In this document: piece after piece, positions 41,201 to 47,200 of the stretch
Position numbering within the stretch: the first letter of the stretch is position 1
How the letters are laid out: every line of letters starts with the position of its first letter
Origin: Salinispira sp.
GTDB lineage: Bacteria; Spirochaetota; Spirochaetia; DSM-27196; Salinispiraceae
Direction of reading: 5' to 3'
Assembly (NCBI GenBank): GCA_965602015.1
Contig: OZ271918.1
Coordinates: 160,001 to 224,000, forward strand
DNA length: 64,000 nucleotides
Made by a program: the position numbers

Positions 41201-44200
41201 GCTTTGCGTCTCGCCCTGGGTAGCCTCGGCGAGTTTTCTCTCAGCCCGGCACTGAGCCTGGGGTTGTCGGAGATTTTCGGCACGACGGTGAGCTGGAGCC
41301 ACAAACTTCTCTATGTGCCGAGCATAATTCCCTTTGGGCTCATAGCGGTTTTGACCTTCTTCTGGTTTCGGATGGACCGGAAAGCCGCGGCTTCAGTGTT
41401 TGGTGACTCGGTCCGACAGCTGAACGCACCCGCAAAGGCGCTATTGGGAGCCCTGGTTTTTGTCAACCTCATGATGATGGGCGGACAGGGTTCCGCGGTG
41501 GCGCTTATCGGATCGGCTCTCTCGGGGGCAACCGGAGGAGCCTGGAAATACTTTTCAGCACTTCTCGGCGTCCTGGGAAGCTTTTTTAGCGGCTCGAACA
41601 CCGTCAGCAACCTGACCTTCGGGCCCATCCAGGATTCCATCGCCGCAAATCTCGGCCTGAATAGGACAACCATTCTGGCGCTACAGTCGGTAGGCGGTGC
41701 AATGGGGAATATGGTTTGCATAAATAACATCGTCGCCGTCAGTTCGGTACTGGCCCTGGAAAAAAGCGAAGGCTACATCCTCACCCGGACCGTCCGGGCC
41801 CTCGTTGTCTATGCTGCAGTCGCCGCCTTTATGGCTTTTTTCCTGGCGTAAGCGCTCTCTGGATTCCGCCGGTCTGCATCACAGACCGGCGGAGGTTCCC
41901 CTGGAGAATAATTCCCAGTGCCCCGAAAACAGCTGAATTAAATCAGCTGTTTTCGGGGCACAACCCAAATATATCTACATTTGTTGAGTTTTTTCTTACG
42001 CCGCCAATAAAGATTCTGACTATTTTTCTCAGGAAAATGAAAAGATCCCTCCAAACAATCACTATATGTGATTATTCTATACCTATGAAAGAAATGACGC
42101 GTCACAATGCCGGCAGGATCTACCTGTTTCTCCTGCTATTGTCGGTAATCGGGTTTATCACCTTCCTGGCCATCGGCGGAACCCAAACCGCCCCGGGTGA
42201 AGAACCCTTTTTACTGTTCGGGTGGATGACCATTCAGTTATTCATAGGAGTCATTTTCGTACTCTTTTGGCTGGTCAGCTACATAATCTACTTCTTTTTC
42301 TTCTGGCCGTACCGATAGGAGGTCCCATGGCTTTTACACTTATTGCTCTCACGCTCTTTGGGGCTGTCATCGTGTTTATGGCGGCCTACGGTTACCGAAT
42401 CAGCGCCAAAACTGCCGAAGACTTTATGCTCGGCGGTCGAACCATCGGCGTCGTCGTTATGTTCTTTTTTGTACTCTTTGCGATTTCTTCAGCCTGGACC
42501 TTCTACGGATTTCCTGGTCTTCTGTATACCCAGGGACCAGGATACGTTATGTTTATCTGGGGTTCGGTAGTCGGTTTTGCCGGGCTCTATATGTTTCTTG
42601 GTCCCCGGCTGTGGGCATTGGCCAAGATAAACCGTTTTCTCTCTCCGGTTGAAGTTTTAGGTGAGCGCTATCAGTCCAAGACCCTTCGGCTCATCCTCTC
42701 TTTGAGTATTCTCGCATTCATCGTCCCCTACGTCGGCATTCAGCCCTTGGGTGTTGGAGCGGGATTCGAAGCCCTCACCGGCCTGCCTGCAGTCTGGGGT
42801 GCAGTTTATACCGCCGTCATATTAATTGTGCTGGTAATGCTTGGCGGGATGCGCATTGTGGCATGGGTTAATATCTTTCTGGGAGTCATTTACATGACTG
42901 CACTTTTGGGGAGCCTGCTATGGGCGGTAAACGTCCTGTTCCCCGACGGTGGTCTTGCCCAGGCGGCGAGCATCGTCGCCCAAACGCGACCTGAACTGCT
43001 TTCGGACCCTGGCCCTGCGGGTGCCTACACGCCGGTTGTCCTCGGAGGCACCTTCGTCGTCGGGATTCTGGCGTTCAGCTGGCCCCATGTGGCTATCGGC
43101 TGTATGACTGCCCGGGACAAGAGCCTGTTCAAGTGGTTCCCCCTGCTGATCTTTGTGTTTGGAGGCCTGTTCTTCTATATTCTTCCCTTTATTTGGGGAT
43201 CCTTGGTTGCTCCCGCGGCGATGCCCCTGGAGGAATTGCAGGCCCTGGCCAATAGCAACGGGGTTTCCCTTCAAACAGAGGCTGACCGGGTGGTTCAGAC
43301 GGTTATCAGCCGCACTCTGCCAGAATGGTTCGGCGTGTTTGTTCTGCTCGGAGTAATCGCCGCTGCGGTAAGCACCGCTGCCGTACAGCTGATGACCTCA
43401 AGCGTCATTGTCAGCCGGGACGTCATTCAGGGACTATTTAAACCCGATGCCAGTGACAAGCAGATTACCACCTGGGCCCGCTGGGCGGTTATCGGGGTTG
43501 TTGTCTTGAGCCTGATCGTCAGCTTTTTAAACCAGGGAGCCATGGCCCTCTACCTTACCGACGTGAGCGTTCCGGGATTCGCCCAGTGGGCGCCGGCCCT
43601 TGTCGGTGGGCTTCTGTGGAAACGGGGTACCAAGCAGGGAGCCATCGCGGGAACCCTTGCCGGCGTTATCTACCTGGTCCTCAGTCTGGTTATTGTCGTT
43701 AACGGCGAACGGCCTTTGGTAATCGGGCACCCGGTTATTCCCAGTCTCCTGGTGAATACCCTGGTGTACATTTTCACCAGCCTCTTTACCCGTCGGCCAA
43801 GCGAAGATATTGAATCTCAGTTCTTTGATGAAGTCGACGCCTATCTCAAGGCCGAATCAGCCGGCAAAGCGAATTCTTAGGAGTGTGTTGTGAGCGAAAC
43901 GAGTAAAAAGCGCTGGAGGCTGATTTATAATCCAGAAGGGGATGTGTACGACGTCCCCAGCTACGGCGCCTCGGTAGCCGAGGGCCGCATTGCGGGAAAG
44001 TATCAACTTTCCAACACCCTGGTCCCCGACACCGTAGTGCTTCAGGCTGTAAAGCGGCCGGGAATTGTCGCCGGAGCTGATGTTACCGTCGACCGTTCCC
44101 AGGCCGAGCGCTACGGCATCGAGATCGCCCGGCTCCCGCGAAGCGGCCGCAACGGAGCCAAATCGGTGGGAACCATTCAACTCAGCGACCTCATGGCTAA

Positions 44201-47200
44201 ATCATCGAAAAAGTTTGAGGCCGAGGAAACCCGGCCCGATGATCCGGCAGTCCTGATTTACACCTCCGGCACTACCGGCTTGCCCAAAGGCGCGATGCTG
44301 ACTCACAGGAACTTTCATTTCCAGTGCAGCACCATTGTCACATCGCTGCTCGACTTTAAGTCCAGCGACCGGGTAATCGGAACCTTGCCGCTGTATCACA
44401 TTTTCGGCTTGGCGAACTCCATGATTTCTGCTGTCTTTTTTGGCGCAAGCCTGGTGATGATTCCCCGCTACTCTCCGCAGATACTTCTGGAGACAATAGA
44501 CAAACACAAGGCGACAATACTTCCGGCGGTTCCCACCATGTATCAGCATCTCATGTTGGCCGCCCGGATGGCGCGCAACAAATCTGTGGTGCCCAAGAGC
44601 CTTAACCACTGTATTTCCGGAGGCGCGCCGTTGAGTCAGCGCCTGTACGAAGATTTTGGCAAAACGTTTAATACGAACATCATGGAAGGCTACGGCCTCA
44701 CCGAGTCCACCTCTGCGGTGGCGGCCAACGGGGTAAACGGTGAATACCGCGACGGGTCTATCGGCAGACCGGGGAATGGCGTCGAAATGAAGATTTTCGA
44801 TGACAACGGCGAGGAAGTAGCCGCCGGAACCGAAGGGGAAATCGCCATCCGGTCCACCACTATTTTCAAGGGATACTGGAACAACGCCGAAGCGACCAGT
44901 CAGGTGCTGAGAAAAGACGGTTGGCTTCTTACCGGTGATCTTGGCTATGTCGATAAGGACGGCTTCTTTTTTATCACCGACCGCAAAAAGGACATCATCA
45001 TCCGCAGCGGTTATAACATCAGCCCGAGGGAGATCGAAGAGGTTCTGGATCTCCATGAAAACGTCCTGGAATCCGCGGTTATTTCCCGCAAAAGCGCAAA
45101 GGGCGACGAAGTGGTTGTGGCCTTTATCGTCCCCAGAAACATCCCCGAAGAGTTCGGCAGCGAAGCCTCGGACATCGACCCCGAAGCCCTTCACAACAGC
45201 GACTACGCCAGCAAAATGATCGGTGAAATGAGGGATTATGCGGATACCGGTCTTGCGCTGTACAAACAGCCCCAGGAGTACCGCATAGTGCCGAGTCTCC
45301 CCAAAACCGCAACCGGAAAGGTGCTCAGACGGGAGCTCCGTCAGAATGTGGAGGATGCGCGGCTTATTGCGAAGAGGAAGGAACATGTTCAAAGCTAAGC
45401 TATTCGGAAAGAACGAGCCCGATGTCCAGGAGCTGCCTATCGGACTCGGGAAAATGTTTGAAACCATCAGCACCCAGTTTAAACGCAAGGAAGCCATTCG
45501 ATACGAAAATCAGGTAATGAGCTACCAGGAAGCCGATGAACAGGCTAGCCGGGTCGCCGGCGGATTAAAATCCCTGGGAATCGGTCCAGGAGACAGGGTG
45601 GCAATAATGCTCCCCAACATTCCTGAGTTCTACTACAGTTTTTTCGGCATACAAAAACTCGGTGCCGTTGCAGTGCCGTTTAACACCATGTACAAGGGCC
45701 GGGAGATTACCCATATCCTTCAGGACAGCGGCGCACGGGCGGTCATCTGCCTTTCCAATTTCGCCAGTCTCATACAGGAAATTCAGCGGGACTGCCCCGA
45801 TCTTGAAAATGTCATCATTACGGGACAGCGCACCTTCGTCTACGTCGATCCCGGCTCCTCGGTGAACATTCAGATGGTTTTCGAAAAATCGAGGTTTGAA
45901 AATTTTGACGCAGCCTACCACGCCATCGGCGATGTGCTGGTGAAGACCTTTCACAGTCTCGGTGTTGTAGAAGCCTGGTACAGCCACATCGGAGCAATCC
46001 GGGCAAGCGGAAAAAAGCTCGGCACCATATTGTTGAATGAAATCGAAAACCTCTACGTGGCAAACATCGTTACCTTCCTGAAGGACATGGATAACGGACC
46101 ACTGTTCAAGGTCCTGTACATCCCTCCGGAGTTAAAAGAACGGGCGCTGGAACCCATGACGAGCATTCGGACCGAGATCGGTTCGCAGGTCAGCCTTGAA
46201 GAGTTCAAGGATGTCCTCGTCAGAAAACTCAGCGATGCTTTCGAGATCCAGTTCGATGAAGGTGGACTGACCAGGGACGAGCTCATCGCCTATGAAAAGA
46301 ACCGGGCATTGGCCGGACGGGTATGATTTTACGGCGGTTCAGCGCCTAATATATGGAAATGAAGGCAGAGTGAATATATACTAACAGTAGCGAAGGCGGT
46401 TAACTGCGCTTAACTGACTGTGCTGCTCATCACAACATGTCATGCCCCGGTCCTCCGCAATTATTCTGGAGGCATGTACCATGAAAACACTCTACCAAAT
46501 CTCGCGGGCGGCTATTCTGCTGCCCCTCATTTTCACCCTGGCTGCCTGTGATTTTTTTCCCGGTCCCTTTGGGGATGAGGCTGAAATTCATTTGTTTCAC
46601 GGTGACCGGGAAATCCTCGGCAACGACACTTTGGATTTCGGTACTGTCGGGGAGTCCGAAGTTAGCCGGCTTGTCCTGACTATACGAAATCTCGGGGAAG
46701 CCGAGCTACGCTTTACCGCGGCTCCGGAGATCAGCGGCAGCGATGCCCTGCAATTCGAAATCATCGAGGCACCGGCCTCGACCGTTGCGCCTCGGTCGAG
46801 CGGCAGCCTCAGCATAGAATTTCACCCAACGGACGCCGGTCAGATGAGCGCCGTGTGCACCCTTTATTGTAACGACCCTGTTCTGAACATATTCAGCTTT
46901 ACGTTAACCGGAAGCATGGAAGCATCAACATCGGGTGCGCCGAATCTATCAGTGAGTTCCGGCAGCGGCACGCTGTTTTCCAGCGGTGATGAAATCGATT
47001 TCGGAACCGTTACAACGGCGAACAGCACAGTCGGGTATAATCTTATTTTGGCTAACGACGGTAATGCTGATCTTAATCTCGACGGGGATATCATTATTTC
47101 CGGGGTCGATGCCGGACAGTTCGGCGTTGCCGCTCAACCGTCGGAAGCTCTCATCGCTTCGGGGGAATCGATAGATTTGATTGTGAACTACGCCCCGACG

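Follow-up and report, generated by a model that had tools for sequence, protein, structure and literature searches.

Two adjacent genes in Salinispira sp. carry reciprocally split halves of an acyl-CoA synthetase and a lipoate ligase

The locus and its four genes

The window analysed here is a stretch of 64,000 nucleotides from Salinispira sp., within which two neighbouring genes, g164 and g165, each encode part of an acyl-CoA synthetase (ACS) and part of a lipoate ligase (LplA). Their ORFs overlap by 14 nt (Table 1). The survey's finding that drew attention to the locus had treated this pair as the unit; the unit is instead a four-gene operon, in which a small membrane protein and a sodium:solute symporter (SSF) are encoded upstream.

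Table 1. Features of the operon, in window coordinates
Feature	Position	Strand	Remarks
Small two-helix membrane protein, 77 aa	42085..42318	+	C-terminus FWPYR; without Pfam family
Sodium:solute symporter (SSF), 517 aa	42327..43880	+	Pfam SSF 2.5e-29
g164, LplA N-piece + C-terminal three quarters of ACS, 502 aa	43890..45398	+
g164 LplA N-piece, aa 1 to ~88	43890..44153	+	3' end is the broken lipoate-binding loop
g164 ACS C-part, aa 94-490	44169..45359	+	Conserved columns, PRK06187 profile, fold
g164 ACS P-loop	44259-44291	+	Intact
g164 ACS catalytic Lys477	45318-45320	+
g165, ACS N-part + LplA C-part, 313 aa	45385..46326	+
g165 ACS N-part, aa 16-147	45430..45825	+	Ends in strand preceding the a2-a3 loop
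g165 LplA C-part, aa 148-313	45826..46323	+	Without accessory domain
g165 Ala204	45994-45996	+	At ligase Asp position
g165 Lys211	46015-46017	+	Ligase lysine retained

The symporter gene lies upstream of g164 at 62 of the 67 loci, the window included, that leave 600 bp or more for it, and the symporters are 52-96% identical. The small ORF directly precedes it at 49 of 52 loci with room, the three misses being matched by tblastn, and its product is probably a partner of the symporter. Outside these four genes the neighbourhood is not conserved, and neither beta-oxidation nor NRPS genes were seen to recur near the operon across the related loci. The best NCBIfam match of the symporter is panF (122.8 bits, under its cut-off of 328); with 29.2 bits against a cut-off of 1099 for TIGR02711, it is not ActP. 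The Atlas gives it, like P0135, a generic name only. Complex prediction of the symporter with the g164 N-piece and g165 scored 0.01 against a mark of 0.32, a value that speaks neither for nor against an interaction.

A small membrane protein, an SSF transporter and an acyl-CoA synthetase also make up acetate-uptake operons of the acs-yjcH-actP type, and the same combination, with a small two-helix protein, is found in one operon here. However, the SSF protein here is not ActP, the synthetase is nearest to long-chain families, and only the present operon has a ligase-derived domain.

A reciprocal split of two enzymes

Pfam AMP-binding covers model positions 151-384 on g164 (aa 103-330) and 2-115 on g165 (aa 26-136), while LplA-B_cat (PF21948) covers 68-199 on g165 (aa 152-282), the same positions as those given by the survey. 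The NCBIfam profile PRK06187 is likewise divided, with 6-139 on g165 and 147-525 on g164. In the predicted models, residues 16-147 of g165 align to positions -2 to 135 of FadD13 (Z 15.0, rmsd 1.9, 132 aligned) and residues 97-488 of g164 to positions 133-502. Residues 153-309 of g165 align to positions 80-247 of Thermoplasma acidophilum LplA (2ars; Z 12.1, rmsd 4.6, 142 aligned), and this part also aligns to positions 77-210 of LipB (2qht). With Z of 12-14 against LplA, LipB and BirA chains, the BPL/LplA/LipB catalytic fold is present in the g165 model.

The ligase derivation of the N-piece, which the survey had proposed but flagged as weak, now has strong backing. Against intact LplA, BLASTP gives 35% identity over 79 columns (E 2e-12) and profile-profile comparison gives 96% (E 1.8e-9), the matched residues of the intact protein being 1-79 and 3-73. 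A profile of the N-piece scores 28-41 bits on intact LplAs that had been chosen by their C-half alone, whereas none of the other 17,259 genome ORFs exceeds 11.4 bits. The comparator that had been used earlier, the LipB of this genome, scores about 0 bits with this profile, which fails to match other canonical ligases as well; the fitting comparator is a divergent subfamily of intact LplA. The C-part in g165 is 31% identical to residues 82-245 of one intact member (L118), whose HIGDI reads HIGAI in g165. Laid on intact, mostly archaeal, LplA, the two halves run end to end (1-79 and 81-246).

On the synthetase, the N-terminal motifs precede the break and the P-loop follows about 30 residues beyond it, which puts the insertion between a2 and a3. 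The breaks are clean and complementary on both parents. Sequence, profile and fold show that the two enzymes are split reciprocally and that both foreign pieces derive from a ligase. Since each chain is half ACS and half LplA, both folds are complete only in the paired chains. The absence of a whole ACS or ligase domain from either chain, and of a fused form among the homologues described below, argues for the obligate heterodimer that had been suggested. Complex prediction tends to accept the halves of split genes because they resemble solved folds.

Conservation and origin

All four segments occur in two separate adjacent ORFs at 70 of 80 related loci, which span several phyla. Of the remaining ten, eight are cut by contig ends, in one the junction is covered by an N-run, and one (L086) carries a truncated g164. 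The ACS adenylation domain is split over g165 and g164 at every one of the 70 complete loci. Homologues of the N-piece measure 468-536 aa in all 120 of the matches listed, from a search that reached 879 aa, and none of these 120 is a fused form; a weak search for a fusion of 549-2000 aa with the ligase C-half also found none. An apparent fusion of symporter and synthetase at L092 reflects an assembly N-run. The homologue counts reported earlier (548 for g165 and 221 for the N-piece) were not reproduced, as region searches returned 131 for each. Database labels for both chains read just AMP-binding protein or long-chain acyl-CoA synthetase, generic terms that hide the architecture.

In the ligase tree, the split halves form one clade (support 100/100) nested in the divergent intact LplA group (95/90), and the split pair has a single origin. 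The stem branch of the clade is long, at 0.9 changes per column. Values of dN/dS are 0.02-0.26 for the ligase halves (six pairs, one value saturated) compared with 0.05-0.13 for the ACS halves; purifying selection acts on each of the two ligase halves.

An intact synthetase and an eroded ligase

Across 47 homologues, the synthetase motifs (Y124-G134, G267/G269/T271/E272, G349/D350, D364/R365 and K477) are invariant or nearly so, and g164 has its P-loop, GYGLTE, TGD, hinge and C-terminal catalytic lysine all intact. Among protein families, the synthetase comes closest to long-chain-fatty-acid CoA ligases: the long-chain profile PRK06187 scores 350 bits compared with 219 for MbcS, and g164 (218.5 bits) falls below the NF047394 cut-off of 850. 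Malonyl-CoA synthetase was considered on account of high fold and profile scores, and set aside because the pocket, SGGAP/EGYG, does not follow the MatB pattern.

The ligase half has fared differently. Its lipoate-binding loop is broken, with RLPRSGR on the N-piece where intact LplA has RRxxGGG; both arginine positions are variable and the GGG is replaced by (Q/E)RT on g165. The Asp of the (N/G)D motif, which binds Mg in LplA and is invariant in 11 intact relatives, is found in 0 of 79 split sequences, which have A, S, G or V instead. No accessory (LplB) domain is fused or adjacent: g165 stops at about intact residue 245-250 and is followed by no conserved gene. Nor is there a conserved Cys of the LipB/LipM/LipL type at 85% in the C-half (79 sequences) or 80% in the N-piece (69 sequences). 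What persists is His201 (79/79) and Lys211 (78/79), the residues after the lysine being larger than in intact ligases. The near-invariance of the lysine, noted in the survey, therefore stands, but not as the sign of an active ligase, since the loop, the Asp and the accessory domain have gone. A literature search for the roles of LplA residues yielded no usable source, nor did one for an adjacency of lplJ and lcfB in Bacillus.

Losses on this scale, together with the long stem branch and the variable surroundings of the four genes, have suggested a frozen accident, in which the ligase halves are a scaffold left by the crossover that binds nothing else and could not be lost because it helps to join the split synthetase. 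We regard this as distinctly unlikely. Family-specific residues, charged or polar, are invariant over both ligase halves (D21, R149, R206, E249, E256, E299 and Y303), a conserved AGKY insertion is present that intact ligases do not have, and the constraint on the ligase halves equals that on the ACS halves. Furthermore, no carrier was seen to have re-fused its synthetase and shed the ligase halves.

A putative operator and regulon

At 21 of 51 loci the operon promoter is immediately preceded by the palindrome TCGGY-N5-RCCGA, whereas shuffles give a mean of 1.2 and a maximum of 5. Because it was first spotted in the same upstream sequences in which it was later counted, independent evidence comes from the genome-wide scans alone. 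In five related spirochaete genomes these gave 35 sites matched on both strands: 19 at acc/fab genes, four at the split-gene operon, two at a TetR gene, five at ilvC, leuA, an E1-lipoyl-FabH fusion, an acyl-CoA dehydrogenase and an acyltransferase, and five elsewhere. The genes concerned include acc and fabD, fabF, fabG, fabH, fabV and fabZ. On this sequence evidence, the operon appears to belong, in the five spirochaete genomes, to a putative TetR-linked operator regulon of mostly acc/fab and primer-supply genes. The genome of the window has no excess of the operator (one site; three and two for the control pattern) and the query used turned up no TetR orthologue in it; the palindrome is absent from non-spirochaete carriers.

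This regulon bears on the possibility that the operon serves catabolism, taking up and activating long-chain fatty acids or dicarboxylates for beta-oxidation, with the ligase fold as an anchor to the transporter. The top family matches of the synthetase would fit, as would the position of the intact parent ligase within a beta-oxidation cluster at the Sulfolobus-type loci L121 and L126. Where it can be read, however, the regulon is biosynthetic, and beta-oxidation genes do not recur beside the operon; we consider a catabolic role very improbable.

Lipoylation in the carriers

LipA is present in 13 of 14 distinct carrier genomes, plus G000, and GcvH in 13 of the 14; carriers also hold other LplA/LipB/LipM-type genes. 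The split pair is thus no substitute for a missing lipoylation route, although the co-occurrence with LipA is itself uninformative, as 240 of 401 genomes of the phylum have LipA. The E1-lipoyl-FabH fusion was found in only 10 of the 40 carrier entries, which include a few duplicates, and five of the eight phylum genomes that own it have no match to the split gene; it was accordingly rejected as a dedicated client.

The same context bears on a two-step lipoylation or acyl-transfer machine, in which the symporter would import lipoate or octanoate, the synthetase would convert it to the adenylate or to a CoA ester, and the ligase fold, having ceded adenylation to the synthetase, would use its lysine to pass the acyl group on to an acyl carrier or lipoyl domain. 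The retention of Lys211 and His201, GcvH in nearly all distinct carriers and, in one genome (G198), the lipoyl-domain protein E1-lipoyl-FabH under the same operator are in keeping with it. PMC6067878 describes a lipoate ligase that can remain active without its small domain, the large domain of LplA alone being able to transfer lipoate from the adenylate; C8-CoA is accepted by LipB (PMC9307952), and yeast lipoylation is supported by an acyl-CoA ligase with a transferase (PMC7831266). Against this, the RRxxGGG loop, crucial for lipoylation according to PMC9307952, is the cut site and is not rebuilt, the conserved Cys of LipB is lacking, the carriers have LipA and ligase-type genes of their own, and the fusion is as patchy as described above. 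Such a machine is unlikely.

A model for the operon

We consider it somewhat probable that the locus is an uptake-and-activation operon, in which a heterodimeric acyl-CoA synthetase held by a pseudo-ligase clamp feeds an acid into lipid synthesis. The symporter and its small partner would import a soluble short- or medium-chain carboxylic acid. A branched or straight C4-C8 fatty-acid primer is the leading candidate, though short of an even chance; a long-chain or other acid is a lesser possibility, and octanoate or lipoate a slightly fainter one. The products of g164 and g165 would pair 1:1 into an active AMP-forming synthetase, converting the acid to a CoA ester for membrane-lipid synthesis. 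By homology, pairing would also restore a lipoate-ligase fold that is inserted at the a2-a3 loop of the synthetase and cut in its own lipoate-binding loop. This pseudo-ligase would no longer adenylate or ligate lipoate but would clamp the two chains, and the synthetase is probably tuned by something that the fold binds, either a ligand or a partner such as acyl-CoA, an acyl carrier or a lipoyl domain. The arrangement may have arisen by one reciprocal crossover between lplA and a synthetase gene, after which the operon spread across phyla. A precedent is MbcS of S. aureus, which supplies FabH with fatty-acid primers from imported acids (PMC10026030); the synthetase here is below the MbcS cut-off, however, and MbcS has no ligase-derived domain. 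Counting against this uptake-and-activation model are the higher scores of long-chain families over MbcS, the retained lysine, the activity that a lipoate ligase can keep without its small domain (PMC6067878), and the restriction of the regulon to five related spirochaetes.

It is possible, though we lean against it, that the ligase fold is functional, either as an acyl loader of a lipoyl domain or carrier or as a ligand sensor controlling assembly or activity of the split synthetase. If so, a single reciprocal crossover between two unrelated enzyme genes would have produced a split enzyme acting in nature as a switch or relay, coupled to a new carboxylate or lipoate transporter.

Relation to known systems and significance

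Over both chains, the motif set and fold of ANL acyl-CoA synthetases (PRK06187/FadD-like, such as M. tuberculosis FadD13 and 4-coumarate-CoA ligase) are complete, but here the large N-terminal domain is shared between two genes, its halves standing in reversed order and each joined to a foreign half-domain. LplA, as in T. acidophilum and the divergent intact subfamily of Jordarchaeia, Sulfolobus and Bathyarchaeota, is the direct ancestor of both pieces and has in common with them the WYxHxG motif and the lysine; here it is cut within the catalytic domain, and loop, Asp and accessory domain are lost. In the ligases that PMC10332631 describes as split or permuted (LplA+LplB, Lpl(BA)), only whole domains are separated. 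The nearest parallel for the site is offered by interrupted NRPS adenylation domains such as TioN, which carry a foreign domain at the same a2-a3 loop (PMC8341866). There the insert is a methyltransferase and there is one chain, whereas here it is an LplA fold on two chains; the native ends of the inserted ligase fold are the chain ends, so two chains are needed.

No earlier description of a split ACS/LplA system was found in the literature searched. The locus points to an uncharacterised symporter family and to a putative TetR-linked fatty-acid-synthesis regulon in free-living spirochaetes, of which no description came up in literature searches that were not aimed at it. It also indicates that the a2-a3 loop of an acyl-CoA synthetase tolerates a split, a point of use in designing split enzymes. 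Two unrelated enzymes have swapped halves and appear to persist as an interlocked heterodimer across several phyla. As both parents are identifiable and the breakpoints are mapped to within a few residues, a rarely observed route of protein evolution becomes directly testable.

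Anatomy of the gene pair

The genes g164 and g165 are overlapping reading frames on the plus strand, each carrying part of a lipoate-protein ligase (LplA) and part of an acyl-CoA synthetase. The Pfam AMP-binding model is matched in reversed order, at positions 151-384 on g164, which also has AMP-binding_C, and at 2-115 on g165, which also has LplA-B_cat (68-199); these are the ranges on which the survey's finding of a reciprocal split was based. The same division shows in PRK06187, an NCBIfam profile of long-chain ligases (6-139 on g165, 147-525 on g164).

Coordinates of the split pair and of the regulator gene
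Feature	Coordinates	Strand	Description or basis
g164	43890-45398	+	ORF, 502 aa
g165	45385-46326	+	ORF, 313 aa
TetR gene	L175:2446-3015, also L164		operator sites

In AlphaFold models (mean pLDDT 85 for g165 and 80 for g164), residues 16-147 of g165 and 97-488 of g164 superpose on residues -2..135 and 133..502 of FadD13, respectively. The ligase part of g165 aligns with Thermoplasma acidophilum LplA (153-309 on 80..247, Z 12.1) and with LipB (128-291 on 77..210, Z 13.7). The synthetase breakpoint is the loop that links motif a2 to motif a3, described as an insertion site in NRPS adenylation domains (PMC8341866), and the ligase breakpoint is the RRxxGGG loop, described as lipoate-binding (PMC9307952). 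Past the usual synthetase end, g164 has a C-terminal tail motif, D489-x-R491 (window 45354-45362), invariant in 47 homologues, which could be a docking site for the ligase fold or the transporter.

Origin and conservation

When the ligase C-half alone was used to query 1.84 billion representatives, 37 proteins were retrieved, including intact ones of 350-390 aa matching from about residue 82 and labelled in the source as lipoate-protein ligases of Jordarchaeia, Sulfolobus and Bathyarchaeota. In one of these intact proteins, P0135, residues 1-79 are matched by a profile of 69 N-pieces (28.4 bits) and residues 81-246 by a profile of 79 C-halves (117 bits). The N-piece profile reaches up to 41.4 bits on additional intact members picked by C-half patterns; the best other ORF among 17,259 in the window's own genome scores 11.4 bits. 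A second intact protein, L118, matches g164 7-81 (35%, E 2e-12) and g165 152-310 (31%, E 2e-23), and profile-profile comparison of the N-piece with intact ligases gives a probability of 96%. Judged by these matches, the N-piece is ligase-derived, a point on which the survey had found sequence support weak. As the matches on intact proteins are complementary and end-to-end, each parent is cut once, with almost no loss or duplication. We infer that one crossover joined an lplA gene to a synthetase gene that was circular or lay next to it. Parent-type intact LplA in Sulfolobus-like loci (L119-L122, L126) adjoins genes for acyl-CoA dehydrogenase, thiolases, SCP2, enoyl-CoA hydratase, 3-hydroxyacyl-CoA dehydrogenase and acyl-CoA synthetase, a setting in which such a crossover could occur.

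Of 100 loci confirmed in a GTDB contig scan, the best 80 were kept; they carry the labels Spirochaetota, delta-proteobacterial groups, Fibrobacterota, WOR-3, Latescibacterota and Clostridiales. In 70 of the 80, the full set of four segments occurs in the same order, as two separate adjacent ORFs, bearing out the earlier claim of a conserved, adjacent pair; of the others, eight end at a contig edge, one (L092) has an N-run and one (L086) a truncated g164. The ligase C-half is matched in 14 of 401 phylum genomes, 11 of them strongly. No fused single-chain form was found among the 120 listed relatives of g165 (185-328 aa) and the 120 listed relatives of the N-piece (468-536 aa, all with AMP-binding domains). 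In a midpoint-rooted tree of 49 hand-chosen C-halves, the 25 split sequences group together as a single clade (100/100) inside a divergent intact group (95/90), which shows a single origin. Two genomes hold two copies of the pair (L039/L048 and L042/L053), one copy in each without the upstream symporter.

Status of the two enzymes

To judge by its motifs, the synthetase is intact, with all catalytic motifs retained. In six pairs, dN/dS was 0.05-0.13 for the synthetase halves and 0.02-0.26 for the ligase halves (saturated values set aside); both are under selection. That the ligase halves are pure scaffold seems improbable.

An acyl or lipoyl transfer role for the ligase fold is scarcely more probable. 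In its favour, WYxHxG is kept, as is K211, in 78 of 79 sequences, in line with the near-invariance first reported. Against it, the arginine positions of the lipoate loop vary, GGG is substituted, and an Mg-binding Asp, invariant in 11 intact relatives, is A, S, G or V in 79 of 79 split sequences. Residues after the lysine are larger than in intact relatives, and the ligase halves have no conserved Cys. The accessory domain, which the fold lacks, is described as usually required for adenylation, with one active exception, and as dispensable for transfer (PMC6067878). Carriers also have LipA (13 of 14 distinct other genomes) and additional ligase-family genes, and the window's own genome encodes separate LplA, LipB, LipA and GcvH. 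The fold is most simply read as a pseudo-ligase.

Operon and regulation

The pair closes a four-gene operon. Of the 67 loci, the window among them, with enough sequence 5' of the pair, 62 have a sodium:solute symporter immediately before it; at 75% mean column identity, the symporter is better conserved than any other member. A small two-helix ORF precedes the symporter in 49 of 52 loci; no other gene recurs widely around the related loci. The layout parallels that of acs-yjcH-actP, but the symporter here falls below every family cut-off.

In the window, two strong hairpins identified by eye (41918-41961 and 41866-41892; 19-bp and 11-bp arms) separate the operon from a lactate permease gene. 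There (42060-42087) and in many spirochaete loci, a -10-like box lies a few bases before the small-ORF start codon with no ribosome-binding site, which suggests a leaderless transcript. At L068:4480-6372 a different 630-aa gene, which from its N-terminus we take to be symporter-like, occupies the symporter position. In two Fibrobacterota loci (L082:3463-5154, L085:9395-11086) a 563-aa gene, presumably resembling GH3-type acyl-adenylate amido synthetases, lies 3' of the operon.

A palindrome, TCGGY-N5-RCCGA (at most one mismatch), is found upstream of the operon in 21 of 51 loci (shuffle mean 1.2), often 7-9 bases 5' of a TTGAC box. These upstream sequences are the ones from which the motif was derived, so a genome-wide scan provided the independent test. 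Counts of a flanked form of the pattern are 6-12 per strand in G406, G408, G409, G410 and G198, where the reversed pattern gives 0-2; they are 0-1 in G407, G080 and G123, 2-3 in G311 and 1 in the window's own genome. Of 35 sites in the five genomes (matched on both strands, one-strand matches excluded), 19 lie at accB/fabZ, fabD, fabF, fabG, fabH, fabV, fabK-like or ACC genes, five at ilvC, leuA, an E1-lipoyl-FabH fusion, acyl-CoA dehydrogenase and acyltransferase, four at this operon, two at a TetR gene and five elsewhere. Two sites also lie at the G198 copy of the operon. The operator 5' of acc/fab, ilvC, leuA and the TetR gene reads TCGGTC-N3-GACCGA (L147-L184). Orthologues of the TetR protein (43-51%) are present in G406, G409 and G410; none was found with this query in the window's own genome or G311.

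These sites probably define a TetR-family fatty-acid-synthesis regulon of free-living spirochaetes; lying just 5' of the -35 box, they would be compatible with activation. As they are shared by the operon, acc/fab and primer genes, the operon in these spirochaetes is under joint control with fatty-acid synthesis and the supply of primers. The five genomes are kin and the window's genome has no operator signal, so extension to the window would rest on orthology. A 1126-aa E1(alpha+beta) 2-oxoacid dehydrogenase-lipoyl-FabH-like fusion encoded in the window's own genome (C1:1660073-1663450; L193:5074-8451, minus strand) is a possible one-protein primer synthase; 8 of 401 phylum genomes have such a fusion.

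Proposed role

We slightly favour a paired synthetase that activates an imported acid for lipid synthesis. g164 and g165 would form a 1:1 heterodimer, the rebuilt synthetase acting as a CoA ligase on a soluble short- or medium-chain acid and the ligase fold having a binding or regulatory role. The activated acid would flow into lipid synthesis, as described for Staphylococcus aureus MbcS (PMC10026030); a relative carrying a g165-like gene is reported to make iso- and anteiso-C15 (PMC4511686). A catabolic uptake unit is very improbable.

No description of a split LplA/synthetase pair was found in a literature search, mostly of open-access main texts. Split or permuted ligases, as described in PMC10332631, separate whole domains, unlike this pair. 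Interrupted adenylation domains are single chains, whereas here there are two. The job of the pair is likely to be of a known kind, whereas we know of no precedent for its reciprocal two-chain architecture.
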